Assembly (NCBI GenBank): GCA_051294905.1
Contig: CM119372.1
Coordinates: 27,406,001-27,470,000 of the forward strand
Direction: 5' to 3'
Source of the DNA: Botryllus schlosseri
Lineage: Eukaryota
DNA length: 64,000 nucleotides
The position numbers and the translations under genes were made by a program. Shown in pieces: positions 10,217 through 55,175 of this stretch (position 1 is its first letter; each line of letters begins with the position of its first letter). The notes beneath the pieces were generated by a model. The model did no database searches. It worked only from the letters and a program-made list of their open reading frames with translations, and was not told where the DNA came from.

Positions 10217-11686
10217 CCTGGGCAACAATTTTGAACGAAAAATTTGTTGACTTTGATTTTGTACTTGATTTAGGCTAATTTTGGCGTGTTGATTCTAAAA
10301 ATGCCACTGGTTTTCTTTTATCACGTCAACTTTTTGCTCTACGACATATGCCCAAAATATGCAAATTTTCACGAATTTTGTCGTATTACTTTTCCATATT
10401 ATATAAAAATCCACACTTTTACCATATAATAAGTTATATAGTCAAGGGCTCGATTGACACACATATTTGATGCAAACTGCAGGGTATGGCAAGAAAAATA
10501 CACATGACATTTACTGTCAGCTATAGGTCCAATGCCACATTCAGATTATCGAGTGTAACCTGAAACTCATATACGCGCGATAATTTGGATCAAGATCTTA
10601 GGGATAGCAGGCCAAATGATGAAGATTTTGAAATCGAAGATGATATAAAACGTAGAGTAGTCCATCAACACGAGTTAATGATCTGACATAAGCTTTGGGA
10701 CTTGGAATAGAAATGTTCCGAACTTTTAACATCCTTATGAAGTGAGAAAACATTACATGGCTAGGTAGAGAAGGTATTTCACATTCGATCAGGAGAAACA
10801 GTCTTTTCTTCGTAAGCCTATACTTTCGATAGCTTTGTGTATTGCCGTGATACTGGCATTGACATGATACCGTTACCATGGAATACTGGTGAAGTTAGGA
10901 ATCCCGACTTACAAGTCAAGTGAATGGAAAATGCCTATAGGTAGCTCAAAAAGGATCCTAAAGTGTGCCATTCTCCAAAATGGCGATGTCTTAGGTGCAG
11001 TAACCAATGTACACTCAGTTAATCTTCGTGAATAATACAGAAAAATTAAGAGTAATACTGAAACATTGAATTATTGCAATATCACGAGCACGATTGGATC
11101 ATATGTGTCAGCTTTGAAATATTGCGTTTTCTATAGTGGTCAGACAATAAGGTTGCCCATGTAACCCTGATACACATGTGTCACTGCCATAAGTTTATGT
11201 CGGACAGCAGATATTCAAAAAAGCTAAAATATCTAAAAAATTTCCCTAAAAACCTTGACATAGTCAGAGATTGACAAGGAGAAAATGTTTCGCAACATCT
11301 GAAGATGATGGGGCTGAGATACCAGAGTAGATTGGAGCTTACATATGTCAGCTGACTATTGCTCGAGAATGAAACAAGACAACCTAGAGATTTATAGGTT
11401 ATTAGCGTAAATTTGGACCGTGGAACTCGCACTTTATTTGTCATGTAGAAGCAATATCAGTTTAAATCAACCAGATAAAGCAGTGCAAATTTTTATTTGA
11501 AGTCTTTTGATTTACTTTCGACTGCTTGTAGTTTTTGAAACGTTTTATACAATAAGCACAAAATATTTAAAATAGTGCTATTATGTGGGTTATGAGACAA
11601 TGTGGTGGATGCTTAACTCAAAAAATTGACATAATATAGAGAAAAACGACAGTCGTTTTTGAATTCAGCGTCCACAAGTTAGTCAA
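10217..11686 (+). mobile_element. Chapaev3 (CMC superfamily) deletion derivative with transposase remnants, copy A
   Basis: Starts TTA|CCTGGGCAACAATT. Degraded peptides match Chapaev3 transposase motifs (HSVNLRE.Y, YHEHDWIICV, FPKNL...HLKMM.LRYQ). Reverse-complement homologue of copy B. Confidence 0.7.
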
Positions 11687-22334: not shown

Positions 22335-22476
22335 ATAAATTTAATAATATGAACGTATTGTTTGCTGCAAGATTGTCATATTGTGTATCATTGGTTTGTT
22401 CTTGAATTTCCAGACAAATCTCATAACTTTGAGCATCGCTATTTAGAATTCACATCGAATAGTATAGACCTTCCTG

Positions 22477-30598: not shown

Positions 30599-32931
30599 CT
30601 GAGTTATTTCATTGGCTCTAATTGAACTTTGCTTCGATTGTTTGCTTGTATATTTGAAAAGTCTTGAGTCGGCTACTTTGATTGCGGAGGATCTATTACT
30701 TCTTCATCACTGGATGATTTTGTACAATGCATGCTATTATGTACCATGGTCTGTTGTTTTTACGGTGGTATATCTGATATCAGACGAGTGAAACGAAAGC
30801 AGTGATGACAAATAGCGATATCGGCAGAATTCGTCAGATGCGTTGATTCAACCATTACGATTCGCAAATTTCTTTATCTTCAAGTCATATAAAATAAGCC
30901 GAGTCAATGACTTGGGTCGAGTCATGCGTAATGACTCGAGTACAAGTCGAGTCAATCCAAATATTGACTCGAGTCGAGTCATTTTCCAATTTCAAGTGAC
31001 TCGAGTCAAGTCGAGTCACAGAAAAATCGGGACTCGAGTCTGACTCGAGTCGAGTCATGACTCAAGTCATTACAACACTGCCCCTCACCCCACGTTACCG
31101 GATTGATGTACCATAAACAGGAATTGGATGGGCGGATAAATCAAATGATAAATCAAAGGAGCTCAGGTACAGTAACGACGCATCATTGTAGACTTTATTG
31201 ATAACATCAGCAAATGTGCATTCGTTATTTTGCAAGTAAGAAGCGATAACCTGGATATCTGTTAAGATGGCAAACTGAATCAGGGATATCCAACCTGCGG
31301 CCCACCAGCTCGCTAGTAGTTTTCAATCCAACTAGTAATTTGAACTTATAATCTCAGCCTTTAAAATGTGCCAGTCATCTTCTCCGTCCTCCTTTTTATT
31401 TCTCATGCGTGATTGATGACGAAATTGAGATTGTTGCGCGATAATGCCTCCAGAGACTGGTTGAATGAGGCTATACAGAGTGCCGAGTGCAAGTTACGAC
31501 ATTTGTTTTCTTGTTTTCATAATGCTGTGTTGGTGACAGTTGTTATTTTCAAATGCAACTTTTTGCTGCAACTATTCGTAAAATTAGGTACAACAAAAAT
31601 TATAGGCTCAATATGATTCGTTTCTTGGCAAATTAAACGATGTTACATCTTCTTCTAAATTCAACATTGAAAAAGGAAATGGAAATTTTTGTATGTATTC
31701 GTTGAGAACATGGATAATAATTTTGTTACATCCGTCTATCGTAAGGCTGTATTCAGTGGCGAGTAGCCTCAATGGAATTCATTTTGCCGTAAAATCAATT
31801 TGACAAGACAGCTTGTACACCGGACCCCAAGTAGCACCCTATGGAGCACCAAAGACCAACTTTTTTGGAGGGGAGGGGATGACGAAGTACTGTTTCGGTA
31901 TTGCAGCTGTATACCGGGAATATTCATTACTCTGGCAACACAATTTTGTTGACCATTATCAGACAATTGATTTTGACTAATATTTGGCGCTGAATTAAAA
32001 AATGACGCCCGTTTTTCTCTATCACGTCAATTTTTTGGGTTAGGCACCCGCCACATTGTCCCATAACCCACATAATAGCACTACCTTTAATATTTGTATT
32101 TATTGTATAAAATGTTTCAAAAACCACAAGCAATCGAAAGTAAATCAATAGACTTCAAATAAACATTTGCACCGCTTTATTTGGATGATTTAAACTGATA
32201 TTGCTTCTACAGGACCGATAAAGTGCGAGTTTCAGGGTCCAAATTTACGCTAATAACACATAATTCTGTAGGTTGTCTAGTTTGATACTCGAGAAATAGA
32301 CAGCCAACATATGTAAGCTCCAATCTACTCTGGTATCTCAGCCCCATCATCTTCAGATGTTGGGGGATGTTTTCTCCTTTCCCATTTCTGACTATGTCAA
32401 GGTTTTCAGGGAAATTATTTAGATATTTTAGCTTTTTGAATGTCTGCTGTCCGACACAAACACATGGCAGTGACACATGTGTATCAGGGTTATTACATGT
32501 GCATTGTGCATCCTTGTAGTCTGGCCACTAAGAAAACAGGATATTTGAAAGTTGACACATATGATCCAATCGTGCTCGTGATATTGCAACAATTTAATGT
32601 TTCTGTATTATTCACGCAGACTAACTGAGTGTGCAATTGATAATGCACCCAAAACGTTGCGACTTTGGAGAATGCCACACTTTAGGATCTTTTTTGAGTT
32701 ACCTATAGGCATTTGCCATTCACTTGAGTTGTAAATCGGGATTCCTAGCCCACCAGTAATCCATGGTAACATTATCTGGCCAATGGCAGTATCACAGCAA
32801 TGCACAAAGCTACCGATTGTAGGCCTACGAAGAAAAGGCTGTTTCTCGTGATCGAAAGTGAGATATCTTCTCTATCTTGCCAACTAATCCTTTCTCACTT
32901 CGTAAGGATGGTGAAAGTCCAAAGATTTCTC

Positions 32932-33336
32932 TTCCAAGTCTCAAAGCTTATGTCAGATCATTAACTCGTGTTGATGGTCTACTCTACGTTCTATATCATT
33001 TTCGATTTCAAAATCTTCATCATTAGGCCTGCTATCCCGAAGATCTTCATCTTGATCCAAATTATCTTCCAAGTCTCAAAGCTTATGTCAGATCATTAAC
33101 TCGTGTTGATGGTCTACTCTACGTTCTATATCATTTTCGATTTCAAAATCTTCATCATTAGGCCTGCTATCCCGAAGATCTTCATCTTGATCCAAATTAT
33201 CTTCCAAGTCTCAAAGCTTATGTCAGATCATTAACTCGTGTTGATGGTCTACTCTACGTTCTATATCATTTTCGATTTCAAAATCTTCATCATTAGGCCT
33301 GCTATCCCGAAGATCTTCATCTTCATCCAAATTATC
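32932..33336. repeat. 135-bp unit repeated three times in tandem
   Basis: CTTCCAAGTCTCAAAG starts at 32931, 33066 and 33201. Confidence 0.9.
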
Positions 33337-33342
33337 GAGCGT

Positions 33343-33519
<177 letters not shown>

Positions 33520-33681
33520 TTTATTTTTTCATCCAACCAAAATACATAACACACGGCAGTGGTGGTTTTACAGAAAATATGCATGCACAGTACTCGGTAT
33601 TAGATAGGAATGATCGATAAGACCGTGAAGGTCATCTAGTCTGATCACACCAGCATCAAACAGGTACACTTGACTCTAAAC

Positions 33682-35039: not shown

Positions 35040-36974
35040 TTAATGTAACGACAAGAGGTGATCAAGTAGGGCTTTTTTGAATCTATCATAAGGCAATTCA
35101 CGGATATGTGGTGGTAATGCATTCCAGATGATAGGTCCCGAGTAGTCGATAGATCTCTTAGTAAGGTTGCTATTGGGTGGGGGTAAGTAGATATTTCCTT
35201 TAGACGAGGATCTCGTGTAATGGGAGTGGACATTTTTAGCAGGCACGAAAAAGTCATCAAACACAGGATGCAAACTTTCGGAAAAATGTTTGTGAATGAC
35301 TTTTGATGCTTCGAAGCGATATAGTTTGTCAACTTGCAAAATTCGGTGCTTACGGTAGTAAGGCGATAGTTTGGTGCGTAAATGTACAGATGAGATCAGC
35401 AGTATTGCACGGTTTTGCAGGAATCTAATTCTGCACAAAAATGTTGTGCATGCACTTCCCCATACTACGATTCCATATTGCAGGTGAGAGTGGAAAAGAG
35501 AGAAATATATGGTTCGTAGTATTGATCTGGGAACCAAATATTGCAGACGGGTCATTATTCCCACACACCGAGCTAGTTTCGATATTGTGCATTCAATATG
35601 CTGCTTCCAAGACATTTTGGCATCAATGGTGACGCCGAGGTATTTTGCTGAGTCACATATGGAGATTTGTTTATGATTCATGTTCACAGTGTAACTATGA
35701 TTGGCATTATTCAAAAGGAGCATCTCGGTCTTATCGGCATTCAAACTTAAGTTGCTTGCTTGCAGCCATCTTGACACTTTTGAGAGTTCCCTATTCACGG
35801 ATGCATGCGAATCATCGACAGTGTTGGAGGTTATGATTATGAAGAGGTGAGTATCATCAGCAAATAGGGTTGTGCGGAATAAAGATGCATTAACAATGTC
35901 GTTAATATAAATGAGGAAAAAGTCGGTCCAAGGACTGAGCCTTGTGGCACTCCACAAGTTATATCTCTGGTGGTCGTTCTTAATGTCCCCAGTTTAACAA
36001 ATTGTTTGCGGTTTGCCAGGTAGCTTTCAAGTAGAGTTGCTGCAATACCCCTGATTCCATAGTGTTCTAGATTGTATCTTAAGATTCTGTGGTTAAATGT
36101 GTCGAAAGCTTTGCGGAGGTCGATAAAAATGCCGCAGCCATTTTGTTTTGCTTGGTGGTTTTGTAATAGTCCGTTACAATTGATGATATTGCATGGTTGG
36201 TGCTGTGGCTTGATCTGAATCCATGCTGAGTCGGAGACAGTACTGCATTCAATTCCAAAAAAATTCTTGAGTCGGCAGTCAATCAGTTTCTCAAAAACCG
36301 TGGCAAGATTTTGCAAAACAGATATTGATCGGTAGTTAGAAATTAGCTTTTTACAGCCTTTCTTAAACACTGGCATTACCCTTGCAGTTTTCAGTGCATC
36401 AGGGAAAATGCCTATAGACGTATCGACACATTAAAGAAAATGCATATAACATCACCAATAATATTAAAGACTAGCTTCAGAAAGTGAGTTGGGATGAGAT
36501 CGGGCCCTACTGCTTTGTTACTTTTCATTTCAGATAATATGATAGCAACTTCTCCATTACTTGTCGGCTCAAGAAAAATGGATTTCTGAGGGCCAGGACT
36601 CAAGTACGAGAGAAAGTCATTGCAGGAGTTTGGTATTGAAGCTGCAAGATCCGGACCAATGTTGCAAAAATACTGATTGAAATTTTCTGCTACTGCAAGC
36701 TGGTCCTTGATCATGCTGCCATTCTCGAGGAGCTCGATGTCAACAGCACTCTTGGGAGCATTACCTTTAGTTAGGTTGACACTTTCTCCAATGGTTTTCC
36801 ATGTGTTCTTGGGATCTTTGGAGCACTCTTCGAATCTTTTGTGGAAGTATGCCTTTTTGGCATTTTCTTTCATATGTGTCACTTGGTTTGCATATATTTT
36901 GTACAGTTTTTTGCCTTCGCTTGTGCCTTGCAGATAGTAGTGCTTATGCATCCAATCCCTTATTTTGATCGCAA
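35040..36974 (-). pseudogene. LINE ORF2 reverse transcriptase region (frameshifted)
   Basis: NYRSISVL, QHGFR, FIDLRKAFDT, GVPQGSVLGP, LFADDT and KYLGVTID spread over several frames. Confidence 0.92.
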
Positions 36975-36994
36975 CTAGTAAGTAGTATAGTCGA

Positions 36995-37330
36995 TCGCTC
37001 GTGACGGGCTATGGGGCTCTTATGGGCGGGGTGGTGACGCGCCTGAAAATCGGGGGTGGTGATGCGCCTTTTTAGACCCCCCTTGCGGCGGTGATGCGCC
37101 ATGTGTTCTTATGGGTGCGGTCGTGATTCGCCTTTTCGGCTATAGGCTGCGGCGGTGACGCGCCAGAAAACCCGGGGTGGTGACTCGCCTTTTTTGCTAT
37201 AGGTGGTGGCGGTGAGTCGTATTTCATGTATTCTTACAGGGTCTCTGCTGATTCACCATGTGTTCTTATGGGCGTGGCGGTGATTCGTACTTTCGAGTAT
37301 AGGCATCTCTCGCGTGGTGTTGAATATGTA
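36995..37330. repeat. GC-rich subterminal motif array GGTGA(C/T)(G/T)CGCC, mirrored at about 51785-52120
   Basis: About 10 copies of the motif, plus recurring ATGTGTTCTTATGGG. Confidence 0.75.
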
Positions 37331-40300
37331 CGAGTCACCAACAATAACCGCGCAAACGGAAACGCTGTTTGTTGTGAGAATTAAGCAGTGCGACCTATAT
37401 TTCGAATGACCTGCGCGCTGAATTGTTGCCCATACAGCTGTGTGCTACTATCGTATCGATTATTACACTAATCCAGTCAGTGCGAAATAGTTTGCTAAAT
37501 CTAGGAATCACTTCCAAGGTAATATTTTGGTAATTAGTTTACCGCAGAGCCGGCGTAGTCGGCGATTCGAATATCAACAATAACCGCGTTCACAAACTAA
37601 CACTTCAAAAATGTGTGAAATAGTTTGCAAAACCCCGCGATCTCTGACAAGATAATGACTCGGGTGACATGATAACGTTACAGGTATAGGCTGAGGTGGT
37701 GATTCGCCATGTGTTCTTATGGGTGCGCTCGCACGTCGTACTTTCAAGTATAGGTATCTCTCGCATGTCGTATTGGAAACTCGTGTTGGCTCGCTCACGC
37801 GGTGAAATTTTAGTAATCAGTTTGTCGCAGAACTTGATTTCACTCATAAGATTTAATAAGTAACGAATAACAGACCGCCAGTGTCGGTAACTTGAATAGC
37901 GACAAATCGTCACTTATTTCCGCTCTAAGCCTAATCCTTTGTGAAGTGAACGCTTATTCAAAAGGTTGTGATATAATTTCAAAATCCAACGACCACTCAC
38001 CGGATAATGCTGCAGACATAGCACTCTCTCATGCCCGCTCACAAGGTAATATTTCGGTAATTAGTTTGTCACAGAACCGTCGCAGACGGTGTGATTCAAA
38101 ACCAGCAATTTGTCACTTGCCCGCGATCGCTATATGTTTTGACACTTCAGAAGAGTGGTTGACTTTAGTTGCGTGATACAAATCATGAGAATATTCAATC
38201 AATGCGTCAATTTGTCAACTCGAAATGAAACTCACTACACAGTTCAAGTTGATTCGTATCTGAATGTGTTAATTCGGTACAATTCTAATTATTTTGAGAA
38301 ATCTTTTCGTGATCTTTTGATTCGACTGCAACCTGAATATTACTGACACCGACTTTCAGTCACATCGAATTATTCGCACACTCCGCGCCGTCGTTTTCAT
38401 AGCTATAGAATCAATACCAACTATAACTCTACAAGAATCAAGAATCACAAGTATGTGCATTATACAGTTATTGTCTTTATCAACATGAAATCAAACTCTT
38501 AACAAAAACACGCAACTAATCATTTGGCAACTCTAGCATTACCAAAAAATTCCAGTATTGTTGATTGAAAATCCTTGAGTCATTATTATCAAAAATGTTA
38601 AAGTACCGCATCGGAATCCATTCGCGGGATGTACTAAAGGTAAATCCAGATAATCCAAAATGAAATATTTGGACTTTGACAAACATGACTACCAACTTTG
38701 ATCCAGTCACATTTCAAGATTACACTTTGAAACAATCCTTGAAACTTACAACTCTATTCACGACTGAGTTTTCCGTTTATCAGTTTCAGTAAATACTATC
38801 GCGATATTTTAATGTGTTACTACGCACAATCGAATCAATCAATGAAATAGCACCTGTTGTAAATATTTCTAACTTGACAACCACTTATGCATACCGCGAT
38901 CGACTTGTGACGCGATGAGTTAAATCGGAATATTTCAATCTATTTTTCGAAACCTTGAACAAGCTATCAGGTTTTTTTTTTTGTAATCGAGTGAACGGAA
39001 ATAGTATTACGTCTCAACATTTTACCATCTTCCCATAAACAAAAGAGTAAAATACAAAAAACCTTGTCAAGTCAATCCGTTTGTAACTTACCCAACCAAA
39101 GCAAAAAGTATCCTTATGAAAAGTAGACAAGACTACGCCAGTAATCACCACAATCCAAAATCCATAGCAAGTTCGGTTGTATTCATAGTCCACCAACTCG
39201 TATTTTTATTCAACTGTAAAAGTCGTTACTACTCTGCTAGACAAAAAAAAATTACTATGTGGTATATTTTGTAAGACAAAAGTAATTACTTCTCGGTGTC
39301 AGCGACTTGAGATTAACATATGTTTTGAGTATATGATATTTGAATGTCTGACCAACGTAGTTAAGAATTCATTTCTTACGACCGAACACCGGTATTACAT
39401 TGAAAGTTATCATGCTGTAAACATAAGGATTGACACATGGATTTGACATATGTAATAGTTGATCATGACTTGATTATTAAATTATTCGCGTTAATTAGAC
39501 CCGGTGTTGCGGTAAAGGTTATTATGACAACAACAAACTTTTCACCACCGTGGTTATCAACATATTGATTTGTAAAACTATACTTGTCTGAAATGTTCTT
39601 GGTTTGAAAGATATTCCGTGTTGGTACAAATCACTCTGTGTATTACGGATATCAGAAAATATTTTTACAAATGTAGTTGTTTCCAGTAACCAAGACTAAA
39701 GACGACACAACAATTTCGTTTGGAATATTTTTATTGGACGCATCCTATTCTACTAGACTTGAGTAATACACAAAACTCATAGCATTAACAAAATCGCAAT
39801 AGGCGCTACACTGAAATCTACAAAATGTGTTTGTATTGTTACTCAAAGTAGTGATCATAAATTATCATTTAAATAAGTAATTGTAATCATAAAACCAAAC
39901 TTGTGAAAGTCATTACCATAACAAAAGAATATTGTAGGTTGCTTGCTAAATGTATGCCGGAAATATTTGTAGAACGCTCACGACCAAAGAAATCGGGAAT
40001 TTCTCCCCATTGTCATTCGTCAAAGTATATGTTGTCACAATACTCATCCCGTCAAAGATCTTACTTGTATGTGATTGAATCGCCGGTAATTAACTCGCTA
40101 AATCAAACCATAGGGAAATTTCACTCAGTCATCGGATATGAAACAGCGTCGCTTAATCGGCGTAGAGCGTTTTTCTAAATGCAAATCATACCTGACCAAC
40201 AGAAAACAATTTTCACTCACCTTGTAATGAAACCAAGCGGTGGGTCTTCGTTCAATATTTTGTCTGTGGCAAATACTTTGCAATAAACACACACACTGGA

Positions 40301-41914
40301 TTGGTTGAGCTTTACATCATCAAGCTGTCATCTGTAAATCGAGATCACATCCGACTTGTAACTGTATCGTTTACCTAACCGAGTTGTATGCACAGTTTGA
40401 TATTTTTCTCATTTAGTGATTGCTGAACATACCAAACGATACACATTCACTTCCGAAATACTGCGTTGATCTCAATTCCCTTTGTCCTGATAATCGAAGT
40501 ACTTTTGTTTTGAATTCATAACAATAGGCTTTTCTACGACATGATAAATTATTGACAAGTTCTGCTTAGAAGATTGGTTGCATATCACGAAAAATAAGAT
40601 ACCACACATATTATTACTGTTACTCCATTCATCGGTATTTTTTCCGTTGTCGATTTTCAAACGAGTAAAATTTATTACTTGAGTTGCTCTGCTTACTATA
40701 TTTAAATGTAAACTCGCCCGTCTTTCAACAACAAACAATGTTAAAAAAGTATGCAATCAAACACAACAAGTTTTACGATACTAATTATTATCCCACATAA
40801 CCCATTTCTTACCGAAGACATATGAAATATAATCATGTTACACGAAAATATTCGCTCATGCTACAAACCTGTACAATGATTGGTGGTGCTTTCAAACTGT
40901 TTCGATACCTCAAGAACTTTATTGTCTGAATGGTTGTTCATGTATCGTAATAATCAAGTAGTTCAACACAGAACTAGTATTAACAGAAACACCAGAGTTG
41001 TTTACACAAAAGTTTGTATGTGTACAGTATGCGAATACCATGTGTAAGTCCAGCACAATTGTGGTATCCATACGAGTTTAGTTAACACAATTTACGACAC
41101 CGAGGTCGCCTCATCTTTCGTAAGACAACAAACCAAGGCTTCAGGATATGTCCATGTCATAACAATAAATCAGCTACTCCAACAACAGAGTACATATGTT
41201 TTCTAGTTACGGTGCTTACATCTTACACACAAATCGACCTACTTTGCTAACGAAAAGCGCTGAGTCATCACAACAATACAACTAAAACATACTATCATAC
41301 AAATTGGTCGTTATAGTTTGCCCACCAACGATACATCGTACAAGTAGCAAGTCTCGAGAATCCAGTTATTCAAAAAAAAAAACGTGAAAGTGTTTCTACA
41401 CCAAGTCGGTATGTTGACGAAAGCATATATTGTAATATCATGATCGATTTACATTCGTTGGTCACAAAATGTCACTACTCTAAATAATTATTTTTCACTC
41501 AAAGCCTACTTGTCACCATTCGTTTCATCAAGCACGAGTTCAAGAAACCTGCTACGACATGAATTGTTATTTTTATGTTGTGTAAATAGGTAATAATTAA
41601 TTTTAGTAACACTATATCAACATCATCGAGTTGTGCGAATAGATTTACATGTGGTCTCGTGGTTTTAATCGAAGTATACAGCGCGGTCTAATGTAGAGTC
41701 ATCTCTATTGTACAACAACTCGGTAATCGAAATGCATTAAAATTTAAACAACAATCTTGGTTCGTCGCACCAAAAATATGTTTACTATCACGATACTCTA
41801 CACAGGTCGTGTAAATTCTTTTCACACTCGTAATAGTATACCAACAGCTACCGGTGACAACGTTTAACAATACCAACGACACTAAAAAAACGACACCTAC
41901 CCAAATAAAATTAC

Positions 41915-42590
41915 CATTTTCACCTGGAGATCGGTCGTTACCCGAGTAGAAATACCATTGTCCTTTGGAGATTTATCGTTTACCCAGTGTAACAAACCCC
42001 TTATCCTTTGGAAATCTATTTTTTCTCTGGGTAACAAACCTTTTTCACTTGGAAATATATTTTTCTCTGGTTAACAAACCTTTTTCACTTGGAAATATAT
42101 TTTTTCTCTGGTTAACAAACCTTTTTCACTTGGAAATATATGTTTTCCCTCAACAACAAACGTTTTTCACTTGGAAATATATTTTTTCCCTGGGTAACAA
42201 TCTTTTTTCACTTGGAAATCTATTTTTTCCCCGGGTAACAATCCTTTTTCACTTGGAAATCTATTTTTTTCCCTGGGTAACAAACCTTTTTCGCTTGGAA
42301 ATATATTTTTTCCTTGAGCAACAGACCATTTTTACTTGGAAATATATTTTTTCCTTGAGCAACAGACCATTTTCACTTGGAAATATATTTTTTCCCTGAG
42401 CAACAAACCATTTCACTCGGCGGGTCGTCGTTTACCTGAGTAAAATATCATTTTTCTTTGGAGATCTGGCGTTTACCCATTGTAACAATACATTTTCACT
42501 TGGAAATCTGTCGTTTACCTGAGTACCAATACCGTTTTCACTTGGAAATCTATCTTTTCCCTGGGTAACAATACCCTTTTCGTTTTGAAA
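41915..42590 (+). repeat. 40-41-bp minisatellite in the left arm
   Basis: About 15 units of the form AAACCTTTTTCACTTGGAAATATATTTTTTCYCTGGGTAAC. Confidence 0.9.
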
Positions 42591-43894
42591 ACTGACAACC
42601 ACACTGGTCAATTTGATATTTTTTTGTATATTGTTACAACAGACAGCGACAAAATATACACCAACAACGACTCCGATACATTTGTCTAATAAAATATATT
42701 CACTTGCTCTGATGCATCCCATCAAAATCATTGGTTACTCACATACAATAACAATGTGCTGTTGTACATCGACATGTATGTTTTCGGAATTGGCGAATAA
42801 AGGGGTTTCCGATATGTCCGTGATGTCCGGGTTTGTGCTTTGGATTTTCCAGAGTCAAAATGTCTGAATAAAACACCTCCTCGACTTTGGTAACTGGTTG
42901 ATACACGGATATTGGTGTTCGGAAAACGGATGAATTTATGTTCCCCATCGCGCTGACAACATCGGGTTACTTGTGAGTTTCCTCGGGTCTGTTTACTATA
43001 TTGTGTCTTTACTGGTCAATACATGTCGCTCCAGTCAGCTGAAACCGGATCACCAATATGAGAAAGTGTGGGGGCCTGATCCGGATATTCACTCATGAAC
43101 CAACGACCAATATTCAAGTAAACATGTTACAGACCGTGTTTTGTCTCCATGAAAAATACCAATGCATACACCATCACATACAAGTAACGTCACGATTGTT
43201 CACAAGTATTCGCGTAAACGAGGTGTACATACAATGTGTCGGTGTACAAACATCATGGAAAACAAATTCATGTTCTCAAGTCTCATCATGCGACGACTCT
43301 GTACATTCAATGTGGGCATAGATGACTTGGGGACAGACAAGCAGCTATATTTGGACGTAACACGATCTTAGTATGAACCGCCTTCACCCAACTTGTGAAA
43401 AATGCATCTCACACGAGTACAACCCTTTCACGGGTTCACACCTTGATTTTACAAGATTGTTCGGATTCTCAGGTAGACTTGCATCGTGATCCAGACCTCG
43501 ACATATAGTAAAATCGGGTTGCGTAACTCGCTCAATCCCCGCGTATTGTTGGTCATAACCTGTGAACTTTTTTGCTGAGACTGCAGTGTTTCACCTGGCA
43601 TAATGTATTTGGCGATCACCCTCGTTATCAGTCTTTCACGCGATGAATATGTCAGATGTCGCTACTCCCACATAACGACTACAGATAAACATCGTGAGCA
43701 GTGACTCTGGATTGAAATCGTAAACAGGGATTATGTGTGTGTGTGAAGCTCGAGTTCGATTACGATTAGATAATGTAATCCAAGGTGTGTCTCTGTGAGT
43801 TGAAGTCTTATTTCGTGTTAATCACACCGCAAGAGGGTGCTATCTCGTAATTCTACAGGTCAACATAAACCGCGAATGGAAACTTTTGGTCTAG

Positions 43895-44254
43895 TTGATC
43901 CAGCTACCTATTGAAACGTTGTACCCACACAGACCATTGAGAAAACGTTATCGCTACCTGACCATATACACGAACATGGAAGGACTACGCGTAACTGTCC
44001 ATAGATTCCTCTGGCCTCACACCGTTGTTTTACGACACAGACAAGACGCAGCGGTGGAAATATTGAAAATAAAAAACGATACCTTGGTGACATTTGATTT
44101 GGATTTTACACCTGATGAACCATACACTCGATTGGTACATTGGGACGACAACTCTATCGTCGAGGTCGAGGGAAAAGAAATGTACAGATTTGTTGGTGTT
44201 GTGGATATTCGGCGTAAATCGGGATGCATGATAGTACATGGTTCGCATATTTGA
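43895..44254 (+). CDS. Orphan ORF in the palindrome spacer (119 codons from TTG, first ATG at 43976)
   Basis: Longest ORF wholly inside the unique spacer, globular-looking composition, no family recognised. Confidence 0.3.
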   Translation: MIQLPIETLYPHRPLRKRYRYLTIYTNMEGLRVTVHRFLWPHTVVLRHRQDAAVEILKIKNDTLVTFDLDFTPDEPYTRLVHWDDNSIVEVEGKEMYRFVGVVDIRRKSGCMIVHGSHI

Positions 44255-45041
44255 CTGAGAATATATCGGTATGCATAGTGCGCTGTCCATTGTATCATGC
44301 CGTGTGTCATCTATGCCCACATTGAATGTACAGAGTCGTCGCATGATGAGACTTGAGAACATGAATTTGTTTTCCATGATGTTTGTACACCGACACATTG
44401 TATGTACACCTCGTTTACGCGAATACTTGTGAACAATCGTGACGTTACTTGTATGTGATGGTGTATGCATTGGTATTTTTCATGGAGACAAAACACGGTC
44501 TGTAACATGTTTACTTGAATATTGGTCGTTGGTTCATGAGTGAATATCCGGATCAGGCCCCCACACTTTCTCATATTGGTGATCCGGTTTCAGCTGACTG
44601 GAGCGACATGTATTGACCAGTAAAGACACAATATAGTAAACAGACCCGAGGAAACTCACAAGTAACCCGATGTTGTCAGCGCGATGGGGAACATAAATTC
44701 ATCCGTTTTCCGAACACCATTATCCGTGTATCAACCAGTTACCAAAGTCGAGGAGGTGTTTTATTCAGACATTTTGACTCTGGAAAATCCAAAGCACAAA
44801 CCCGGACATCACGGACATATCGGAAACCCCTTTATTCGCCAATTCCGAAAACATACATGTCGATGTACAACAGCACATTGTTATTGTATGTGAGTAACCA
44901 ATGATTTTGATGGGATGCATCAGAGCAAGTGAATATATTTTATTAGACAAATGTATCGGAGTCGTTGTTGGTGTATATTTTGTCGCTGTCTGTTGTAACA
45001 ATATACAAAAAAATATCAAATTGACCAGTGTGGTTGTCAGT

Positions 45042-45717
45042 TTTCAAAACGAAAAGGGTATTGTTACCCAGGGAAAAGATAGATTTCCAAGTGAAAACGG
45101 TATTGGTACTCAGGTAAACGACAGATTTCCAAGTGAAAATGTATTGTTACAATGGGTAAACGCCAGATCTCCAAAGAAAAATGATATTTTACTCAGGTAA
45201 ACGACGACCCGCCGAGTGAAATGGTTTGTTGCTCAGGGAAAAAATATATTTCCAAGTGAAAATGGTCTGTTGCTCAAGGAAAAAATATATTTCCAAGTAA
45301 AAATGGTCTGTTGCTCAAGGAAAAAATATATTTCCAAGCGAAAAAGGTTTGTTACCCAGGGAAAAAAATAGATTTCCAAGTGAAAAAGGATTGTTACCCG
45401 GGGAAAAAATAGATTTCCAAGTGAAAAAAGATTGTTACCCAGGGAAAAAATATATTTCCAAGTGAAAAACGTTTGTTGTTGAGGGAAAACATATATTTCC
45501 AAGTGAAAAAGGTTTGTTAACCAGAGAAAAAATATATTTCCAAGTGAAAAAGGTTTGTTAACCAGAGAAAAATATATTTCCAAGTGAAAAAGGTTTGTTA
45601 CCCAGAGAAAAAATAGATTTCCAAAGGATAAGGGGTTTGTTACACTGGGTAAACGATAAATCTCCAAAGGACAATGGTATTTCTACTCGGGTAACGACCG
45701 ATCTCCAGGTGAAAATG
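45042..45717 (-). repeat. Mirror copy of the 40-41-bp minisatellite in the right arm
   Basis: Reverse complement of 41915-42590. Confidence 0.9.
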
Positions 45718-48456
45718 GTAATTTTATTTGGGTAGGTGTCGTTTTTTTAGTGTCGTTGGTATTGTTAAACGTTGTCACCGGTAGCTGTTGGTATACTATT
45801 ACGAGTGTGAAAAGAATTTACACGACCTGTGTAGAGTATCGTGATAGTAAACATATTTTTGGTGCGACGAACCAAGATTGTTGTTTAAATTTTAATGCAT
45901 TTCGATTACCGAGTTGTTGTACAATAGAGATGACTCTACATTAGACCGCGCTGTATACTTCGATTAAAACCACGAGACCACATGTAAATCTATTCGCACA
46001 ACTCGATGATGTTGATATAGTGTTACTAAAATTAATTATTACCTATTTACACAACATAAAAATAACAATTCATGTCGTAGCAGGTTTCTTGAACTCGTGC
46101 TTGATGAAACGAATGGTGACAAGTAGGCTTTGAGTGAAAAATAATTATTTAGAGTAGTGACATTTTGTGACCAACGAATGTAAATCGATCATGATATTAC
46201 AATATATGCTTTCGTCAACATACCGACTTGGTGTAGAAACACTTTCACGTTTTTTTTTTTGAATAACTGGATTCTCGAGACTTGCTACTTGTACGATGTA
46301 TCGTTGGTGGGCAAACTATAACGACCAATTTGTATGATAGTATGTTTTAGTTGTATTGTTGTGATGACTCAGCGCTTTTCGTTAGCAAAGTAGGTCGATT
46401 TGTGTGTAAGATGTAAGCACCGTAACTAGAAAACATATGTACTCTGTTGTTGGAGTAGCTGATTTATTGTTATGACATGGACATATCCTGAAGCCTTGGT
46501 TTGTTGTCTTACGAAAGATGAGGCGACCTCGGTGTCGTAAATTGTGTTAACTAAACTCGTATGGATACCACAATTGTGCTGGACTTACACATGGTATTCG
46601 CATACTGTACACATACAAACTTTTGTGTAAACAACTCTGGTGTTTCTGTTAATACTAGTTCTGTGTTGAACTACTTGATTATTACGATACATGAACAACC
46701 ATTCAGACAATAAAGTTCTTGAGGTATCGAAACAGTTTGAAAGCACCACCAATCATTGTACAGGTTTGTAGCATGAGCGAATATTTTCGTGTAACATGAT
46801 TATATTTCATATGTCTTCGGTAAGAAATGGGTTATGTGGGATAATAATTAGTATCGTAAAACTTGTTGTGTTTGATTGCATACTTTTTTAACATTGTTTG
46901 TTGTTGAAAGACGGGCGAGTTTACATTTAAATATAGTAAGCAGAGCAACTCAAGTAATAAATTTTACTCGTTTGAAAATCGACAACGGAAAAAATACCGA
47001 TGAATGGAGTAACAGTAATAATATGTGTGGTATCTTATTTTTCGTGATATGCAACCAATCTTCTAAGCAGAACTTGTCAATAATTTATCATGTCGTAGAA
47101 AAGCCTATTGTTATGAATTCAAAACAAAAGTACTTCGATTATCAGGACAAAGGGAATTGAGATCAACGCAGTATTTCGGAAGTGAATGTGTATCGTTTGG
47201 TATGTTCAGCAATCACTAAATGAGAAAAATATCAAACTGTGCATACAACTCGGTTAGGTAAACGATACAGTTACAAGTCGGATGTGATCTCGATTTACAG
47301 ATGACAGCTTGATGATGTAAAGCTCAACCAATCCAGTGTGTGTGTTTATTGCAAAGTATTTGCCACAGACAAAATATTGAACGAAGACCCACCGCTTGGT
47401 TTCATTACAAGGTGAGTGAAAATTGTTTTCTGTTGGTCAGGTATGATTTGCATTTAGAAAAACGCTCTACGCCGATTAAGCGACGCTGTTTCATATCCGA
47501 TGACTGAGTGAAATTTCCCTATGGTTTGATTTAGCGAGTTAATTACCGGCGATTCAATCACATACAAGTAAGATCTTTGACGGGATGAGTATTGTGACAA
47601 CATATACTTTGACGAATGACAATGGGGAGAAATTCCCGATTTCTTTGGTCGTGAGCGTTCTACAAATATTTCCGGCATACATTTAGCAAGCAACCTACAA
47701 TATTCTTTTGTTATGGTAATGACTTTCACAAGTTTGGTTTTATGATTACAATTACTTATTTAAATGATAATTTATGATCACTACTTTGAGTAACAATACA
47801 AACACATTTTGTAGATTTCAGTGTAGCGCCTATTGCGATTTTGTTAATGCTATGAGTTTTGTGTATTACTCAAGTCTAGTAGAATAGGATGCGTCCAATA
47901 AAAATATTCCAAACGAAATTGTTGTGTCGTCTTTAGTCTTGGTTACTGGAAACAACTACATTTGTAAAAATATTTTCTGATATCCGTAATACACAGAGTG
48001 ATTTGTACCAACACGGAATATCTTTCAAACCAAGAACATTTCAGACAAGTATAGTTTTACAAATCAATATGTTGATAACCACGGTGGTGAAAAGTTTGTT
48101 GTTGTCATAATAACCTTTACCGCAACACCGGGTCTAATTAACGCGAATAATTTAATAATCAAGTCATGATCAACTATTACATATGTCAAATCCATGTGTC
48201 AATCCTTATGTTTACAGCATGATAACTTTCAATGTAATACCGGTGTTCGGTCGTAAGAAATGAATTCTTAACTACGTTGGTCAGACATTCAAATATCATA
48301 TACTCAAAACATATGTTAATCTCAAGTCGCTGACACCGAGAAGTAATTACTTTTGTCTTACAAAATATACCACATAGTAATTTTTTTTTGTCTAGCAGAG
48401 TAGTAACGACTTTTACAGTTGAATAAAAATACGAGTTGGTGGACTATGAATACAAC

Positions 48457-51431
48457 CGAACTTGCTATGGATTTTGGATTGTGGTGATTACTGGCGTAGT
48501 CTTGTCTACTTTTCATAAGGATACTTTTTGCTTTGGTTGGGTAAGTTACAAACGGATTGACTTGACAAGGTTTTTTGTATTTTACTCTTTTGTTTATGGG
48601 AAGATGGTAAAATGTTGAGACGTAATACTATTTCCGTTCACTCGATTACAAAAAAAAAAAACCTGATAGCTTGTTCAAGGTTTCGAAAAATAGATTGAAA
48701 TATTCCGATTTAACTCATCGCGTCACAAGTCGATCGCGGTATGCATAAGTGGTTGTCAAGTTAGAAATATTTACAACAGGTGCTATTTCATTGATTGATT
48801 CGATTGTGCGTAGTAACACATTAAAATATCGCGATAGTATTTACTGAAACTGATAAACGGAAAACTCAGTCGTGAATAGAGTTGTAAGTTTCAAGGATTG
48901 TTTCAAAGTGTAATCTTGAAATGTGACTGGATCAAAGTTGGTAGTCATGTTTGTCAAAGTCCAAATATTTCATTTTGGATTATCTGGATTTACCTTTAGT
49001 ACATCCCGCGAATGGATTCCGATGCGGTACTTTAACATTTTTGATAATAATGACTCAAGGATTTTCAATCAACAATACTGGAATTTTTTGGTAATGCTAG
49101 AGTTGCCAAATGATTAGTTGCGTGTTTTTGTTAAGAGTTTGATTTCATGTTGATAAAGACAATAACTGTATAATGCACATACTTGTGATTCTTGATTCTT
49201 GTAGAGTTATAGTTGGTATTGATTCTATAGCTATGAAAACGACGGCGCGGAGTGTGCGAATAATTCGATGTGACTGAAAGTCGGTGTCAGTAATATTCAG
49301 GTTGCAGTCGAATCAAAAGATCACGAAAAGATTTCTCAAAATAATTAGAATTGTACCGAATTAACACATTCAGATACGAATCAACTTGAACTGTGTAGTG
49401 AGTTTCATTTCGAGTTGACAAATTGACGCATTGATTGAATATTCTCATGATTTGTATCACGCAACTAAAGTCAACCACTCTTCTGAAGTGTCAAAACATA
49501 TAGCGATCGCGGGCAAGTGACAAATTGCTGGTTTTGAATCACACCGTCTGCGACGGTTCTGTGACAAACTAATTACCGAAATATTACCTTGTGAGCGGGC
49601 ATGAGAGAGTGCTATGTCTGCAGCATTATCCGGTGAGTGGTCGTTGGATTTTGAAATTATATCACAACCTTTTGAATAAGCGTTCACTTCACAAAGGATT
49701 AGGCTTAGAGCGGAAATAAGTGACGATTTGTCGCTATTCAAGTTACCGACACTGGCGGTCTGTTATTCGTTACTTATTAAATCTTATGAGTGAAATCAAG
49801 TTCTGCGACAAACTGATTACTAAAATTTCACCGCGTGAGCGAGCCAACACGAGTTTCCAATACGACATGCGAGAGATACCTATACTTGAAAGTACGACGT
49901 GCGAGCGCACCCATAAGAACACATGGCGAATCACCACCTCAGCCCGAACTTGCTATGGATTTTGGATTGTGGTGATTACTGGCGTAGTCTTGTCTACTTT
50001 TCATAAGGATACTTTTTGCTTTGGTTGGGTAAGTTACAAACGGATTGACTTGACAAGGTTTTTTGTATTTTACTCTTTTGTTTATGGGAAGATGGTAAAA
50101 TGTTGAGACGTAATACTATTTCCGTTCACTCGATTACAAAAAAAAAAACCTGATAGCTTGTTCAAGGTTTCGAAAAATAGATTGAAATATTCCGATTTAA
50201 CTCATCGCGTCACAAGTCGATCGCGGTATGCATAAGTGGTTGTCAAGTTAGAAATATTTACAACAGGTGCTATTTCATTGATTGATTCGATTGTGCGTAG
50301 TAACACATTAAAATATCGCGATAGTATTTACTGAAACTGATAAACGGAAAACTCAGTCGTGAATAGAGTTGTAAGTTTCAAGGATTGTTTCAAAGTGTAA
50401 TCTTGAAATGTGACTGGATCAAAGTTGGTAGTCATGTTTGTCAAAGTCCAAATATTTCATTTTGGATTATCTGGATTTACCTTTAGTACATCCCGCGAAT
50501 GGATTCCGATGCGGTACTTTAACATTTTTGATAATAATGACTCAAGGATTTTCAATCAACAATACTGGAATTTTTTGGTAATGCTAGAGTTGCCAAATGA
50601 TTAGTTGCGTGTTTTTGTTAAGAGTTTGATTTCATGTTGATAAAGACAATAACTGTATAATGCACATACTTGTGATTCTTGATTCTTGTAGAGTTATAGT
50701 TGGTATTGATTCTATAGCTATGAAAACGACGGCGCGGAGTGTGCGAATAATTCGATGTGACTGAAAGTCGGTGTCAGTAATATTCAGGTTGCAGTCGAAT
50801 CAAAAGATCACGAAAAGATTTCTCAAAATAATTAGAATTGTACCGAATTAACACATTCAGATACGAATCAACTTGAACTGTGTAGTGAGTTTCATTTCGA
50901 GTTGACAAATTGACGCATTGATTGAATATTCTCATGATTTGTATCACGCAACTAAAGTCAACCACTCTTCTGAAGTGTCAAAACATATAGCGATCGCGGG
51001 CAAGTGACAAATTGCTGGTTTTGAATCACACCGTCTGCGACGGTTCTGTGACAAACTAATTACCGAAATATTACCTTGTGAGCGGGCATGAGAGAGTGCT
51101 ATGTCTGCAGCATTATCCGGTGAGTGGTCGTTGGATTTTGAAATTATATCACAACCTTTTGAATAAGCGTTCACTTCACAAAGGATTAGGCTTAGAGCGG
51201 AAATAAGTGACGATTTGTCGCTATTCAAGTTACCGACACTGGCGGTCTGTTATTCGTTACTTATTAAATCTTATGAGTGAAATCAAGTTCTGCGACAAAC
51301 TGATTACTAAAATTTCACCGCGTGAGCGAGCCAACACGAGTTTCCAATACGACATGCGAGAGATACCTATACTTGAAAGTACGACGTGCGAGCGCACCCA
51401 TAAGAACACATGGCGAATCACCACCTCAGCC
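48457..51431. repeat. Tandem duplication of about 1,487 bp confined to the right arm
   Basis: Units 48457-49944 and 49945-51431, junction CTCAGCC|CGAACTT. Identical ORFs are offset by 1,487 bp. Confidence 0.92.
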
Positions 51432-52140
51432 TATACCTGTAACGTTATCATGTCACCCGAGTCATTATCTTGTCAGAGATCGCGGGGTTTTGCAAACTAT
51501 TTCACACATTTTTGAAGTGTTAGTTTGTGAACGCGGTTATTGTTGATATTCGAATCGCCGACTACGCCGGCTCTGCGGTAAACTAATTACCAAAATATTA
51601 CCTTGGAAGTGATTCCTAGATTTAGCAAACTATTTCGCACTGACTGGATTAGTGTAATAATCGATAGTAGCACACAGCTGTATGGGCAACAATTCAGCGC
51701 GCAGGTCATTCGAAATATAGGTCGCACTGCTTAATCCTCACAACAAACAGCGTTTCCGTTTGCGCGGTTATTGTTGGTGACTCGTACATATTCAACACCA
51801 CGCGAGAGATGCCTATACTCGAAAGTACGAATCACCGCCACGCCCATAAGAACACATGGTGAATCAGCAGAGACCCTGTAAGAATACATGAAATACGACT
51901 CACCGCCACCACCTATAGCAAAAAAGGCGAGTCACCACCCCGGGTTTTCTGGCGCGTCACCGCCGCAGCCTATAGCCGAAAAGGCGAATCACGACCGCAC
52001 CCATAAGAACACATGGCGCATCACCGCCGCAAGGGGGGTCTAAAAAGGCGCATCACCACCCCCGATTTTCAGGCGCGTCACCACCCCGCCCATAAGAGCC
52101 CCATAGCCCGTCACGAGCGATCGACTATCCTACTCTAGTA

Positions 52141-52756
52141 TGTCATAACCAATCCAAGGTTTCGAAGCACCTTGTATTGCGGTTGACTTTCCTAATTTGG
52201 AAAGATGTATCGAGGGCTACCCGCAGTTCCTCAATAAATATTTGAAAGTGGCGATTGTAGTTGTCAATTGTGAGTGGAGGAATTTTGTAGTTGTTGAAGG
52301 TATTGCTGACAATTTCATATACTCCTCACTACCGCGTGGGTTTAAGGGCGTTCGAGATTCAAATTCTTTAGCACATTGTGGCAGGCCAATTTCATGTGGC
52401 AGATGATGGGATAGTGATCAGTCATACTGTGTTGGAGCACAAAAGGGAACAGGTGATATTGATGAGTGTTGCAGTAGAAGTGATCTAGTAGAGTTTTGGA
52501 TCGGTCAGCTATTCTTGTGGGTTTAGTAATTATCTGAGCTATTCCATAAGAATCAAGCATTTCACGGTACCTTGTGTTGAAGTTGGTGGTCTTCAGCAAA
52601 TCAATATTTATGTCTCCAATAATAAATATTTGTTTTTTAGCTGCCGTTAGCGTTTTCAGTATATTTGAGAATTCGTCAAGAAAAGTATCTTGCTTTGTTC
52701 CTGGGTGTTTGTAGATGACTGCCACCGTGAGAGCTTTTTGTACATTTACTCTGACA
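52141..52756 (-). pseudogene. LINE ORF2 apurinic-endonuclease domain, C-terminal part
   Basis: VIYKHP, IIGDINIDLL, ITKPTRI, TLLDHFY, TDHYPI, then KPWI. Confidence 0.9.
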
Positions 52757-55175
52757 CATTGGCGCCGAGTTACGGGGTGGCGGGGTGGCGCAGCCACCCC
52801 ATGACACAATTATGGGGTGGCGGCCACTCCTTGCAAAATGCTTAAACGCCCGCCGTCTAATCTGTCAATTAGCGAGTCCGTGATATCGCGTAAATGCCAA
52901 CCATTTACCATTAACGGATGCGCGCGTGAATAATTAAATACTCAGCTTTTTCGGCGACGACGAACTAGTGCTCAAAACGCCCAATAAAGTGTAATCCGTG
53001 ATTTGTAATCACTAATAATCATACAATCGAAGCGACCTCGTTGACGGCGTCGATTTCGACACGCTTGCGCCGCGAAACACCATCTCCTCTCTTGACCAGA
53101 CGAACGAATTCACGTTCTACTTCTCTCAATTAAGTTGTATTTGCGCGCATATTCGTTTACAAAATATTTCTTGAGTTAGTTTCGTAATAGTCTTTTTAAT
53201 TGTAGCGCGATCGCGAAATAGGAAATCGGGTTTGTGTATGCTATCGAAGAGAAGGTCATTCCTGCGCAAAGTGAGCATATTCATTACTCTAACAAGGCTT
53301 TGCTAACTTTTATCTGGAAATGCAGTAATGCAGCTCAAACGTCTTTATAATGAACAAACAATTGTCGTGATGTCAGACTCGGAACCCCATTATGCTGTAC
53401 GCAAGTTGAGGAATTGCTGATTAGATGCGCGCATTCTCGTTTGCTATCATCTGTAGGCTACTAATTCTTGTCTGCTTTATACGTTCGTATTCCCTCGATG
53501 TCACTTGTCAGTGTTTGATTTGTTATTAATACTGCGCATTGTGCAGTACATGGCGTTGAATTACGTTGTCAAATATTGATTCAACAAGAGATTCTCTGTG
53601 GCGCAAATTCTGAATTTATTCGATTAGTTTGAGCGGGAACCTTCTATTTTCCAATAAACTTCATTGCTGGACGGACTCTATCGGGCGCAACCATATCGCG
53701 GATCGAATCTCAAACCTTCTGGATTTGTATTCCCATTAATAAGGTTGCGGCATGCGCCCATATTGCTCTTGCTGCAATAACACCTTGATAATTAAGTCAC
53801 ACCATTTCACGATCAAATTCGACTGGCTGATCGGGACTTACGTATAGGCCGTAGGCTCCGGGCTTGTATTAACCAGCGCGTTGTCGGCATTAAAACACTA
53901 CGTGCGTAGCCAGTGAGTTTATCATTTCAAACTGAAAATCCCGTCCTTTTGAAATGTCAATTAACAATTCGTATTATCGATGCTGCGTATACTGCAAATT
54001 AGCGAGAATCATTTGTATGCGAAATGGGTCGTCGATATCTCATGTGCACTATCGTCGGTGATTTGATTTAGCGCGTCCATATGCAGGCCTGCTACCGTCC
54101 GCAGAAACACTTTCGCCAAACAGTAACAATCTATGAGTGTACTATTGTTTGTGTTTAAGTATATGTATCTTTTTGATTAAAACTTATGCCCGCGTCTAAA
54201 CAAATTGTGCTCTATGCCATTGCCGAATCTGGGTATTTAGGTATGACTCGCGCACCCTGTAATTGTAATTATTGCGGGTTCGCGGCATGTCTGCAATTTC
54301 GGTATCAGCGCAACCTTGCCGGCCGATTGTACAGTCCGATAAAATTCTTCACTACTATGTATTTCGCACAGCGTACTGATACTGATTTCAGCAAACTAAC
54401 GATCTTTATGAAATGTCAAAATTCGACCTCATTGCTAGAAACGTAGATTTCATCACGTGCTCTGAGAAACACCATCTCCTATAGTCCTATCCCGATTTGA
54501 CGACCAAATATACGTTCATCTTCTACAAATTAAAATGCATTATTTGCATCGATGAGGCCCGCAAGCCGCGTTTAAAATATTTTGTGAACCATTTTTGTCA
54601 TAAATATTCTCTGAGCGCAAAGTTGAACAGTGTTTTATTGTGTGTGCCTGGTAGTTGGAATTTATTCTAGTGCCCATAATATTAATCCAATTATGATTCG
54701 CGAACGTAAACCGGGAAATGCAGCAATGCAGTCTATATCGATGTTTTAATCAGCAACCAATTGTCGCGATGCAAGCTACACTAAGTAAAAACCCATTGTG
54801 TTGGCGGCAAGGGATAATTACTGATTGGCCGCACGCGTTTGTAATCATACTTCTTGTCTGTCTTTCGTGTTCCAGAATTGTTGTGCCATGTTACTGCTCA
54901 GTCCAGCAATGAATGCCGAGCGTTCGGCAATCAATAACCTAATTTTGCAATGATCTCAACGGGAGATCGCGTCGCGTGCACAGACGAATCTCGCTAATTG
55001 GACACGGCCGCGCGTAACACTGATATTACGACATGTTGAATTACAACTGAATATTAGCATCAGACAGGTAATTTCGAAAGGACGAGGTTTTGCGTTTCAA
55101 AAGGAGAGGGTTTCGACACCTCCCTGACTACGCGCCTGCCGCCACCCCATGCAAAAATAAAAGTCGGTGCCTATG
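52757..55175. mobile_element. Non-autonomous hAT element in the LINE endonuclease domain
   Basis: TIRs CATTGGCGCCGAGTT / AAGTCGGTGCCTATG (12/15). TSD CTCTGACA at 52749-52756 and 55176-55183. Removing it restores EYIFVRVNVQKALTVAVIYKHP. Confidence 0.9.

Follow-up and report, generated by a model that had tools for sequence, protein, structure and literature searches.

A 15-kb palindromic insertion in the Botryllus schlosseri genome as a probable member of an abundant family of Maverick satellites

The stretch of Botryllus schlosseri DNA analyzed here (the window; 64,000 nucleotides, positions 27,406,001 to 27,470,000 of contig CM119372.1) carries a 15,154-bp insertion at window positions 36981-52134, in which a left arm of 6,346 bp and a right arm of 7,829 bp in inverted orientation surround a loop of 979 bp. 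Very probably this insertion belongs to a family of satellites of the Maverick/Polinton transposons of the same genome; the family is abundant, comprising at least about 740 loops, and its members are non-autonomous and palindromic almost throughout. An earlier note, made from the window sequence alone, had described the insertion as a gene-poor, defective Polinton-like genome formed by a template switch and recently inserted. Its account of the structure was borne out, with arms at 36981-43326 and 44306-52134, a 979-bp spacer, a 1.49-kb duplication within the right arm, AGTAG at both ends and CTAGTA on both flanks. An origin of this copy in a single recent template switch was not, since the plan has been inherited by several hundred family members whose divergence reaches 25%.

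The family was delineated by searching the genome assembly (495.5 Mb in 219 contigs). The terminal 350 bp of the element gave 2,216 first-look candidates; the 40 that were scored lay mostly in plus/minus pairs, and in 12 of 14 pairs from this scored set the termini were 13.3-15.2 kb apart. A search with the arm interior gave 2,900 candidates, again in plus/minus pairs. Eight further full copies were retrieved from seven contigs and all eight were palindromic (total length 13,285-15,137 bp), having arms of 5.4-7.1 kb that are 99.3-99.97% identical to one another and loops of 332-931 bp. The arms of these eight copies match those of the window copy at 75-96% identity in a mosaic pattern, and the window loop is 89.6% identical over its full length to that of copy L032/L033. 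As the palindromic plan is common to diverged copies, the window copy inherited its architecture and did not acquire it in a de novo event. A 20-nt degenerate motif from the loop gene matched the genome at 743 places and its reversed control at none; were every copy of full length, at about 14 kb each, these 743 would amount to roughly 2% of the genome. Two pairs of satellite termini are unusually far apart, at G000:C25:89476-119204 (29.7 kb) and G000:C16:1579259-1600317 (21 kb), and are possibly nested insertions.

The features of the insertion and of the retrotransposon that it interrupts are, in window coordinates:
35040-36980, minus strand: reverse-transcriptase part of the interrupted non-LTR retrotransposon, continuing at 52141-52809
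36975-36980: left target-site duplication CTAGTA, the identical hexamer lying at 52135-52140
36981-43326, plus strand: left arm of 6,346 bp, matching the right arm in reverse complement save for the five differences and the duplication given below
36981-37767, plus strand: Maverick-type terminus, with an AGTAGT tip followed by subterminal repeats of the GGTGGTGA(C/T)GCGCC type and a 71-nt motif present three times
36986/52129: arm mismatch
37379/51736: arm mismatch
37449-37453: 5-bp indel between the arms
38439-38597, minus strand: relic of the 3' end of a Maverick protease gene with adjacent sequence, 72-74% identical in DNA to three Maverick copies
38972/48661: 1-nt length difference between the arms
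41912-42581: tandem array of 14-16 units of 41 bp, mirrored in the right arm at about 45051-45720
42912/44720: arm mismatch
43327-44305: unique loop (spacer), 979 bp
43653-43693, plus strand: upstream of the loop gene, a block of some 40 nt that hardly varies between the two loop types in an eight-copy alignment
43976-44254, plus strand: loop gene of 92 codons and a stop, encoding an orphan protein, present in 8 of 9 copies
44306-52134, minus strand: right arm, 7,829 bp including the duplication
48457-51431: arm positions 709-2196 in two tandem copies of about 1,488 bp each, a duplication confined to the right arm
52135-52140: right target-site duplication CTAGTA

Compared base by base, the two arms of the window copy differ by three mismatches, a 5-bp indel and a 1-nt indel, exactly the five differences earlier picked out by eye, and by the right-arm tandem duplication with its period of 1487-1488 bp. 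A chance origin is excluded for a 6.3-kb inverted repeat that is more than 99.9% identical. The left tip reads AGTAGT and the right tip is the reverse complement of AGTAGG. Arrays homologous to the 41-bp array are present in all eight other palindromic copies. Long inverted arms with internal tandem repeats form most of the element, as in foldback transposons. No open reading frame (ORF) longer than 149 residues was found in the arm or loop of the window copy, and searches for non-coding RNA yielded neither tRNAs nor an Rfam match at E up to 0.1. When 15 Maverick ORFs were compared by tblastn with the nine arms no polymerase match was obtained, and neither this search nor a scan for ORFs in arms and loop found an rve integrase; of the capsid, ATPase and protease genes nothing was detected beyond a protease relic of 160 bp and a weak trace of capsid (E 0.24). 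The earlier report that genes for protein-primed DNA polymerase (pPolB), integrase, ATPase and capsid are missing is thus upheld, with relic and trace the sole remnants.

The element lies in the reverse-transcriptase region of a long interspersed nuclear element (LINE), in whose sequence next to the insertion RVT_1 was matched (E 5e-16 and 1e-5). As had been claimed, the LINE frame is restored over the empty site, where the minus-strand reading with a single CTAGTA gives ...KPWIGYD followed by ILVAIKIRDWMHKHYYL (the junction having been placed by eye). The interrupted LINE copy is itself decayed, with an in-frame stop 27 codons upstream.

Target-site duplications of 6 bp, perfect in each case, flank all 11 elements analyzed (nine palindromes, the gene-bearing element L031 and a full-length Maverick) and 21 of the 22 ends carry AGTAGT tips, the exception being the right end of the window copy with AGTAGG. 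This confirms the Polinton/Maverick type of the ends proposed earlier; neither duplications of another length nor a partner of the DDE class, which the earlier note had named as contrary evidence, was found among the 11. For vertebrate Mavericks the cited excerpt gives (AGT)2//(ACT)2 end motifs, 6-bp duplications and terminal inverted repeats (TIRs) of 46-1,447 bp (PMC8097293). The palindromes resemble Mavericks, so described, in their (AGT)2...(ACT)2 ends, 6-bp duplication and TIRs, and their termini are homologous to those of Mavericks in the same genome; they differ in having no polymerase, integrase or capsid gene and in repeats of 6.3 kb, making up 87-95% of the element, against the 46-1,447 bp of that excerpt (PMC8097293). 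In eight of the 11 elements the duplication has CG at positions 3-4 (AACGTG twice, AACGTA, ACCGTA, ATCGTT, AGCGAC, CACGGG and TGCGTC), which hints at a possible NNCGNN target preference of the integrase.

Among the elements compared, the termini of the window copy are closest to those of L031 (G000:C7:25714711-25724437), an element of 9,327 bp with 653-bp TIRs. It codes for a 432-aa capsid protein, an integrase with rve and chromo domains, an A32-like ATPase and three penton-like paralogues, and has a protease-like ORF besides. Over about 510 bp the two sets of termini are 96-98% identical, and in a tree of termini, in which the two ends of the same element group together for 11 of 11 elements, they are nearest neighbors. 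L031 is an internally deleted relative of a 15,959-bp Maverick (L044+L038+L039; G000:C5:728137-744095), with a body 97% identical and about 7.4 kb, including the polymerase, lost. This full-length Maverick has 439-bp TIRs and the duplication ACCGTA, encodes polymerase, integrase and capsid genes, and contains a 1,212-aa ORF that passes the PF03175 profile with 31.5 bits against a cut-off of 25.8. A six-frame search of the genome with PF03175 gave no match, a false negative given that the 1,212-aa ORF passes the family cut-off, and negatives of this profile search are unreliable for diverged polymerases. The Maverick capsid gene is present as an open frame at 97-100% identity in at least 80 places (97 scored of 305 candidates), which argues that helper Mavericks were active very recently; satellite loops number at least 743 against these 97 scored places of 305 candidates for helper capsid genes. 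A Polinton by definition, as the cited excerpt has it, encodes polymerase and integrase (PMC5499653). The palindrome is therefore not a Polinton proper, and having no polymerase, integrase, ATPase or capsid genes it would be a derivative that has to depend on a helper. Two further observations concern the gene-bearing elements. The TIRs of L031 are closer to the termini of the palindromes than to those of its own full-length relative, which suggests that helper and satellite may have exchanged ends, and the full-length Maverick has three tandem penton-like paralogues (301, 225, and 141 aa) with a common C-terminal motif.

The outer part of the arms retains traces of its source. The protease relic (window 38439-38597, 160 bp) matches the 3' end of the Maverick protease gene, which adjoins the Maverick TIR, and in three related copies a colinear stretch aligns weakly with the C-terminus of the capsid protein (28% over 75 aa at E 0.24), where reversed arms gave no hit. 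From these traces the outer 1.6-2.2 kb of the arms resembles the protease-side end of a Maverick in a state of decay, in keeping with an ancient copy-back origin. The inner 4 kb or so of the arm has no detectable relation to Mavericks, as blastn and tblastx against three copies gave only scattered matches below threshold. The earlier proposal that the arms are a copied-back Polinton end would fit the outer 1.6-2.2 kb; for the remaining 4 kb or so no parent was detected. An ancient copy-back, involving the protease-side end of a Maverick, is the probable starting point of the architecture, which the window copy inherited.

The arms of each copy have evolved in lock-step. Copies differ from one another by 5-25% and the arms within each copy are 99.3-99.97% identical. 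In four-way alignments of copy pairs, substitutions found in both arms outnumber those found in one by 424:2, 267:3, 238:2, 1031:5, 951:3, and 840:4, with 46:16 and 31:15 in the closest pairs. As a point mutation hits one arm and yet both arms carry it, copying between the arms must be much faster than the splitting of lineages. The arms may anneal, either as a hairpin of the displaced strand during protein-primed replication or within the chromosome, with mismatch repair or gene conversion then equalizing them. The signal of selection in nearest-neighbor pairs of the loop gene (see below) suggests that most copies are young relative to the divergence of lineages, and hence that homogenization acts in active lineages.

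The loop of eight of the nine copies contains the 92-codon gene, the ninth having a loop of 332 bp and no such frame. Among 150 scored matches to the loop gene (of 1,197 candidates) 144 are free of stops. Two deeply diverged loop types, which have 60-63% of residues in common, are separated by a synonymous distance (dS) of 1.1-1.8 with a ratio of non-synonymous to synonymous rates (dN/dS) of 0.13-0.23. Within the window type, 20 further copies were retrieved, all of them open, and one was dropped for a 3-nt insertion; in the resulting sample of 20 sequences (19 retrieved copies and the window ORF) the corresponding ratio of proportions, pN/pS, was 0.195 over 190 pairs and 0.246 over 14 nearest-neighbor pairs, the latter comprising 45 synonymous and 39 non-synonymous differences. 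The loop gene is under purifying selection. Recent divergence being selected as well, it accrued in propagating lineages and not by decay after insertion. The description of the element as a gene-poor defective genome is accordingly correct for the core Maverick genes, which are lacking, and understates the loop with its conserved gene. Of the sequence upstream of this gene, the nearly invariant block of some 40 nt is a candidate promoter or 5' exon, and an AAG|GTRTGT site lies at 43782.

The loop protein was compared with Pfam, where nothing fell below E 0.1, and with the Atlas, where there was no match at 0.9 or above. A profile search of 1.84 billion representatives returned one relative of 91 aa, from a cluster of three unnamed members, and one spurious WD40 protein. 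Two AlphaFold runs gave a mean predicted local distance difference test score (pLDDT) of 44.6 and 37.6, and in four Maverick copies tblastn found no significant match, the lowest E being 0.03. The loop sequence is contained in public runs labelled with the same species, no RNA run being among those listed for it; the contigs of one run, guessed to be RNA but possibly DNA, cover all 30 bins. Runs with three other organism labels contain 0.35-0.39 of the words sampled from the loop, and an RNA run with another organism label gave 0 reads, which has no bearing on the loop gene.

Several other origins have to be set against a satellite family. That the window copy is a fresh snap-back genome, produced by a single template switch in protein-primed Polinton replication and then inserted, would account for arms that differ at just five places, for a total size near that of the 16-kb helper and for the decayed Maverick end in the outer 1.6-2.2 kb (protease relic at 72-74%; capsid trace of 28% over 75 aa, E 0.24). 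A fresh product of a present-day Maverick would, however, show recognizable capsid and protease genes, and in comparisons with three Maverick copies about 4 kb of each arm showed no detectable similarity. All eight other copies repeat the plan, their arms and loops being homologous, and the loop motif recurs at 743 places, leaving this reading a very remote chance; a de novo snap-back at this locus is refuted by the inherited architecture of the diverged copies. An artifact of assembly, in which a chimeric read or a misjoined palindrome folded the sequence back on itself, has hardly any chance at all of being the explanation. The public contigs of one DNA run are admittedly too fragmented, none bridging the arm-loop junction with 31 letters on each side, but the same architecture is present at 9 of 9 loci on seven contigs, each with a 6-bp duplication of its own, the window arms hold private differences and a one-sided duplication, and the frame of the interrupted LINE closes exactly.

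The anatomy alone, with long arms, internal tandem repeats (the 41-bp array and the subterminal repeats) and little or no coding capacity, is that of a classic foldback element, and an ordinary cut-and-paste DDE transposon (Mutator/FB-like or P/Galileo-like) might resemble a Maverick only at its tips. This reading is highly unlikely, and was rejected because the duplications are of 6 bp and the gene-bearing partner is a Maverick. The duplications are of this length in 11 of 11 elements and accompany (AGT)2 tips, the terminus of about 510 bp is 96-98% identical to that of an element with Maverick integrase, ATPase and capsid genes, and a Maverick protease relic lies inside the arm; no DDE transposase ORF was found in any of the nine palindromic copies and no Mutator- or P-type partner was seen. 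It is somewhat less improbable, though still quite unlikely, that the palindromes are sources of hairpin RNA or small RNA through which the host silences Mavericks, as a defense or domesticated function. A transcript through both arms would give a perfect 6-kb hairpin, and the outer 0.75 kb or so is common to Mavericks. Against this, only the termini and the 160-bp relic match Mavericks, so that most of the hairpin would target nothing, RNA reads are few with no arm-wide transcription seen, and hundreds of dispersed copies with fresh duplications and selection on a gene of the element itself are a better fit to a selfish element.

For a family of helper-dependent satellites the following course of events can be envisaged. 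A helper Maverick would supply the integrase that makes the 6-bp duplication, and probably also the terminal-protein and polymerase machinery starting at the (AGT)2 ends. A strand displaced in replication, or exposed in the chromosome, would allow the arms to fold into a 6-kb hairpin in which heteroduplex repair or arm-to-arm gene conversion could move new mutations from one arm to the other, giving rise to lock-step evolution. In adenovirus the 'panhandle' rebuilds the duplex origin, and the hairpin of the palindromes may restore it in like manner. Sizes within the family fall in a narrow range, 13.3-15.2 kb, near the 16 kb of the helper, which suggests that the satellites might be packaged into helper capsids, and the loop protein probably serves the satellite's own propagation. 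A bolder proposal is that the palindromes are true satellite viruses of animal polintoviruses, matched to the capsid in size, using a Maverick origin, replicating through a self-annealing hairpin and hijacking the helper by means of the 92-aa protein; a perfect 'panhandle' intermediate would then re-copy or repair one arm from the other in every cycle. We regard this proposal as tentative and, on balance, rather doubtful.

A number of observations weigh against the satellite reading or parts of it. The full-length Maverick and the palindromes have in common only the first 60 bp or so and scattered subterminal motifs, and the element with nearly identical termini, L031, is without a polymerase, so that neither is more than a candidate helper. 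The earlier note had expected a genome search with the terminal 350 bp to yield further copies and an autonomous partner with the same ends; the copies were found, with their 6-bp duplications, but the partner was found only in part, as L031 without its polymerase and as a full Maverick alike at the tip of about 60 bp. L031 at 9.3 kb also indicates that shorter elements insert, which weakens a strict rule of size. The lock-step arms may be explained as well by gene conversion in place as by homogenization coupled to replication, since either setting fits. Assembly polishing with reads that map to both arms might have slightly inflated arm identity, although private one-arm differences were kept, with the T at 42912 being the minority state in public contigs. 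The loop protein has no recognizable family or confident fold in the searches described, and in a bulk RNA run labelled with the same species just 14 of 12.9 million reads fell on the stretch compared, a count that holds at the level of the family, 12 of the 14 lying only partly on it. A few of them cover the gene and the conserved block, their first mate being on the minus strand, which is consistent, at most, with low-level transcription of the plus strand in a member of the family.

The palindromes combine properties of several known systems. The DNA of incomplete adenovirus particles is an example of the copy-back type. The palindromes would resemble such snap-back or copy-back defective DNA-virus genomes in depending on a helper, in a possible inverted duplication of one genome end and in a size near that of packaging, the snapback genomes of adeno-associated virus (AAV) being a further example (PMC8235507). 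Snap-back genomes arise anew in each infection, whereas the palindromes are heritable, with hundreds of integrated copies, subfamilies and a selected gene of their own. Foldback transposons, among them the sea-urchin TU element, belong to cut-and-paste DDE superfamilies that have other duplication lengths. In these elements, Drosophila FB and Galileo for example (PMC3573991), the inverted arms are likewise very long and repetitive inside, the part between them is short and coding capacity is small or absent; the palindromes differ in the Maverick type of their ends, duplication and gene relic, and in arms several times longer. Arm identity of about 99.9% held over long times is also a property of the primate Y palindromes, which are single-locus, gene-bearing host structures and not mobile families. 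Such large chromosomal palindromes are kept uniform by gene conversion between the arms.

Transpovirons of mimiviruses, as characterized in the section cited, are small linear hitch-hikers with TIRs that have a Polinton-centered origin and no capsid genes and ride in helper particles (PMC5499653). The palindromes are similarly small linear TIR DNA of Polinton-class derivation without capsid genes, and would likewise be carried in helper particles. By contrast, transpovirons are in the same account about 7 kb long and non-palindromic, carry a helicase-polymerase fusion and other genes, and have giant viruses of protists as helpers (PMC5499653). By analogy, the palindrome appears to work like an element with the anatomy of a foldback transposon, the origin of a snap-back genome and the lifestyle of a satellite or transpoviron. 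No published description of palindromic or very-long-TIR Maverick derivatives was found in the full-text literature searched, in which PMC5499653 gave the only match for non-autonomous Polintons, Repbase and subscription journals being outside reach.

Mavericks/Polintons are thought to be integrated viruses, of whose replication and packaging very little has been observed. A satellite that outnumbers its helpers, with a helper-like size, only cis-acting ends and a single selected gene, would offer handles on both: sequence conserved in the arms would point to the cis requirements of the helper machinery, and the loop protein is a candidate hijacking factor. Through 6-kb arms that evolve in lock-step, hairpin repair or gene conversion can be read out in nature, which is seldom possible. 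If the copies are full length, the family would also contribute long palindromes on a major scale, such palindromes being fragile sites. Were the satellite-virus proposal true, the family would be the first satellite lineage of Mavericks and a natural system in which replication enforces a 6-kb palindrome.

Outside the insertion, the window contains on the plus strand a 667-aa open frame at 22468-24471 that ends in a hAT-family dimerization domain (E 2e-5) and is a hAT transposase gene or its relic. A long (GA/TC)n microsatellite at 33223-33620 produces LSLS.../RERE... frames on both strands. Two pairs of inverted matches, 11218-11562 with 32093-32437 and 10896-11049 with 32594-32747 (154-345 nt, 87-89% identical and some 21 kb from each other), probably represent another repeat that is present twice, the copies being oppositely oriented.

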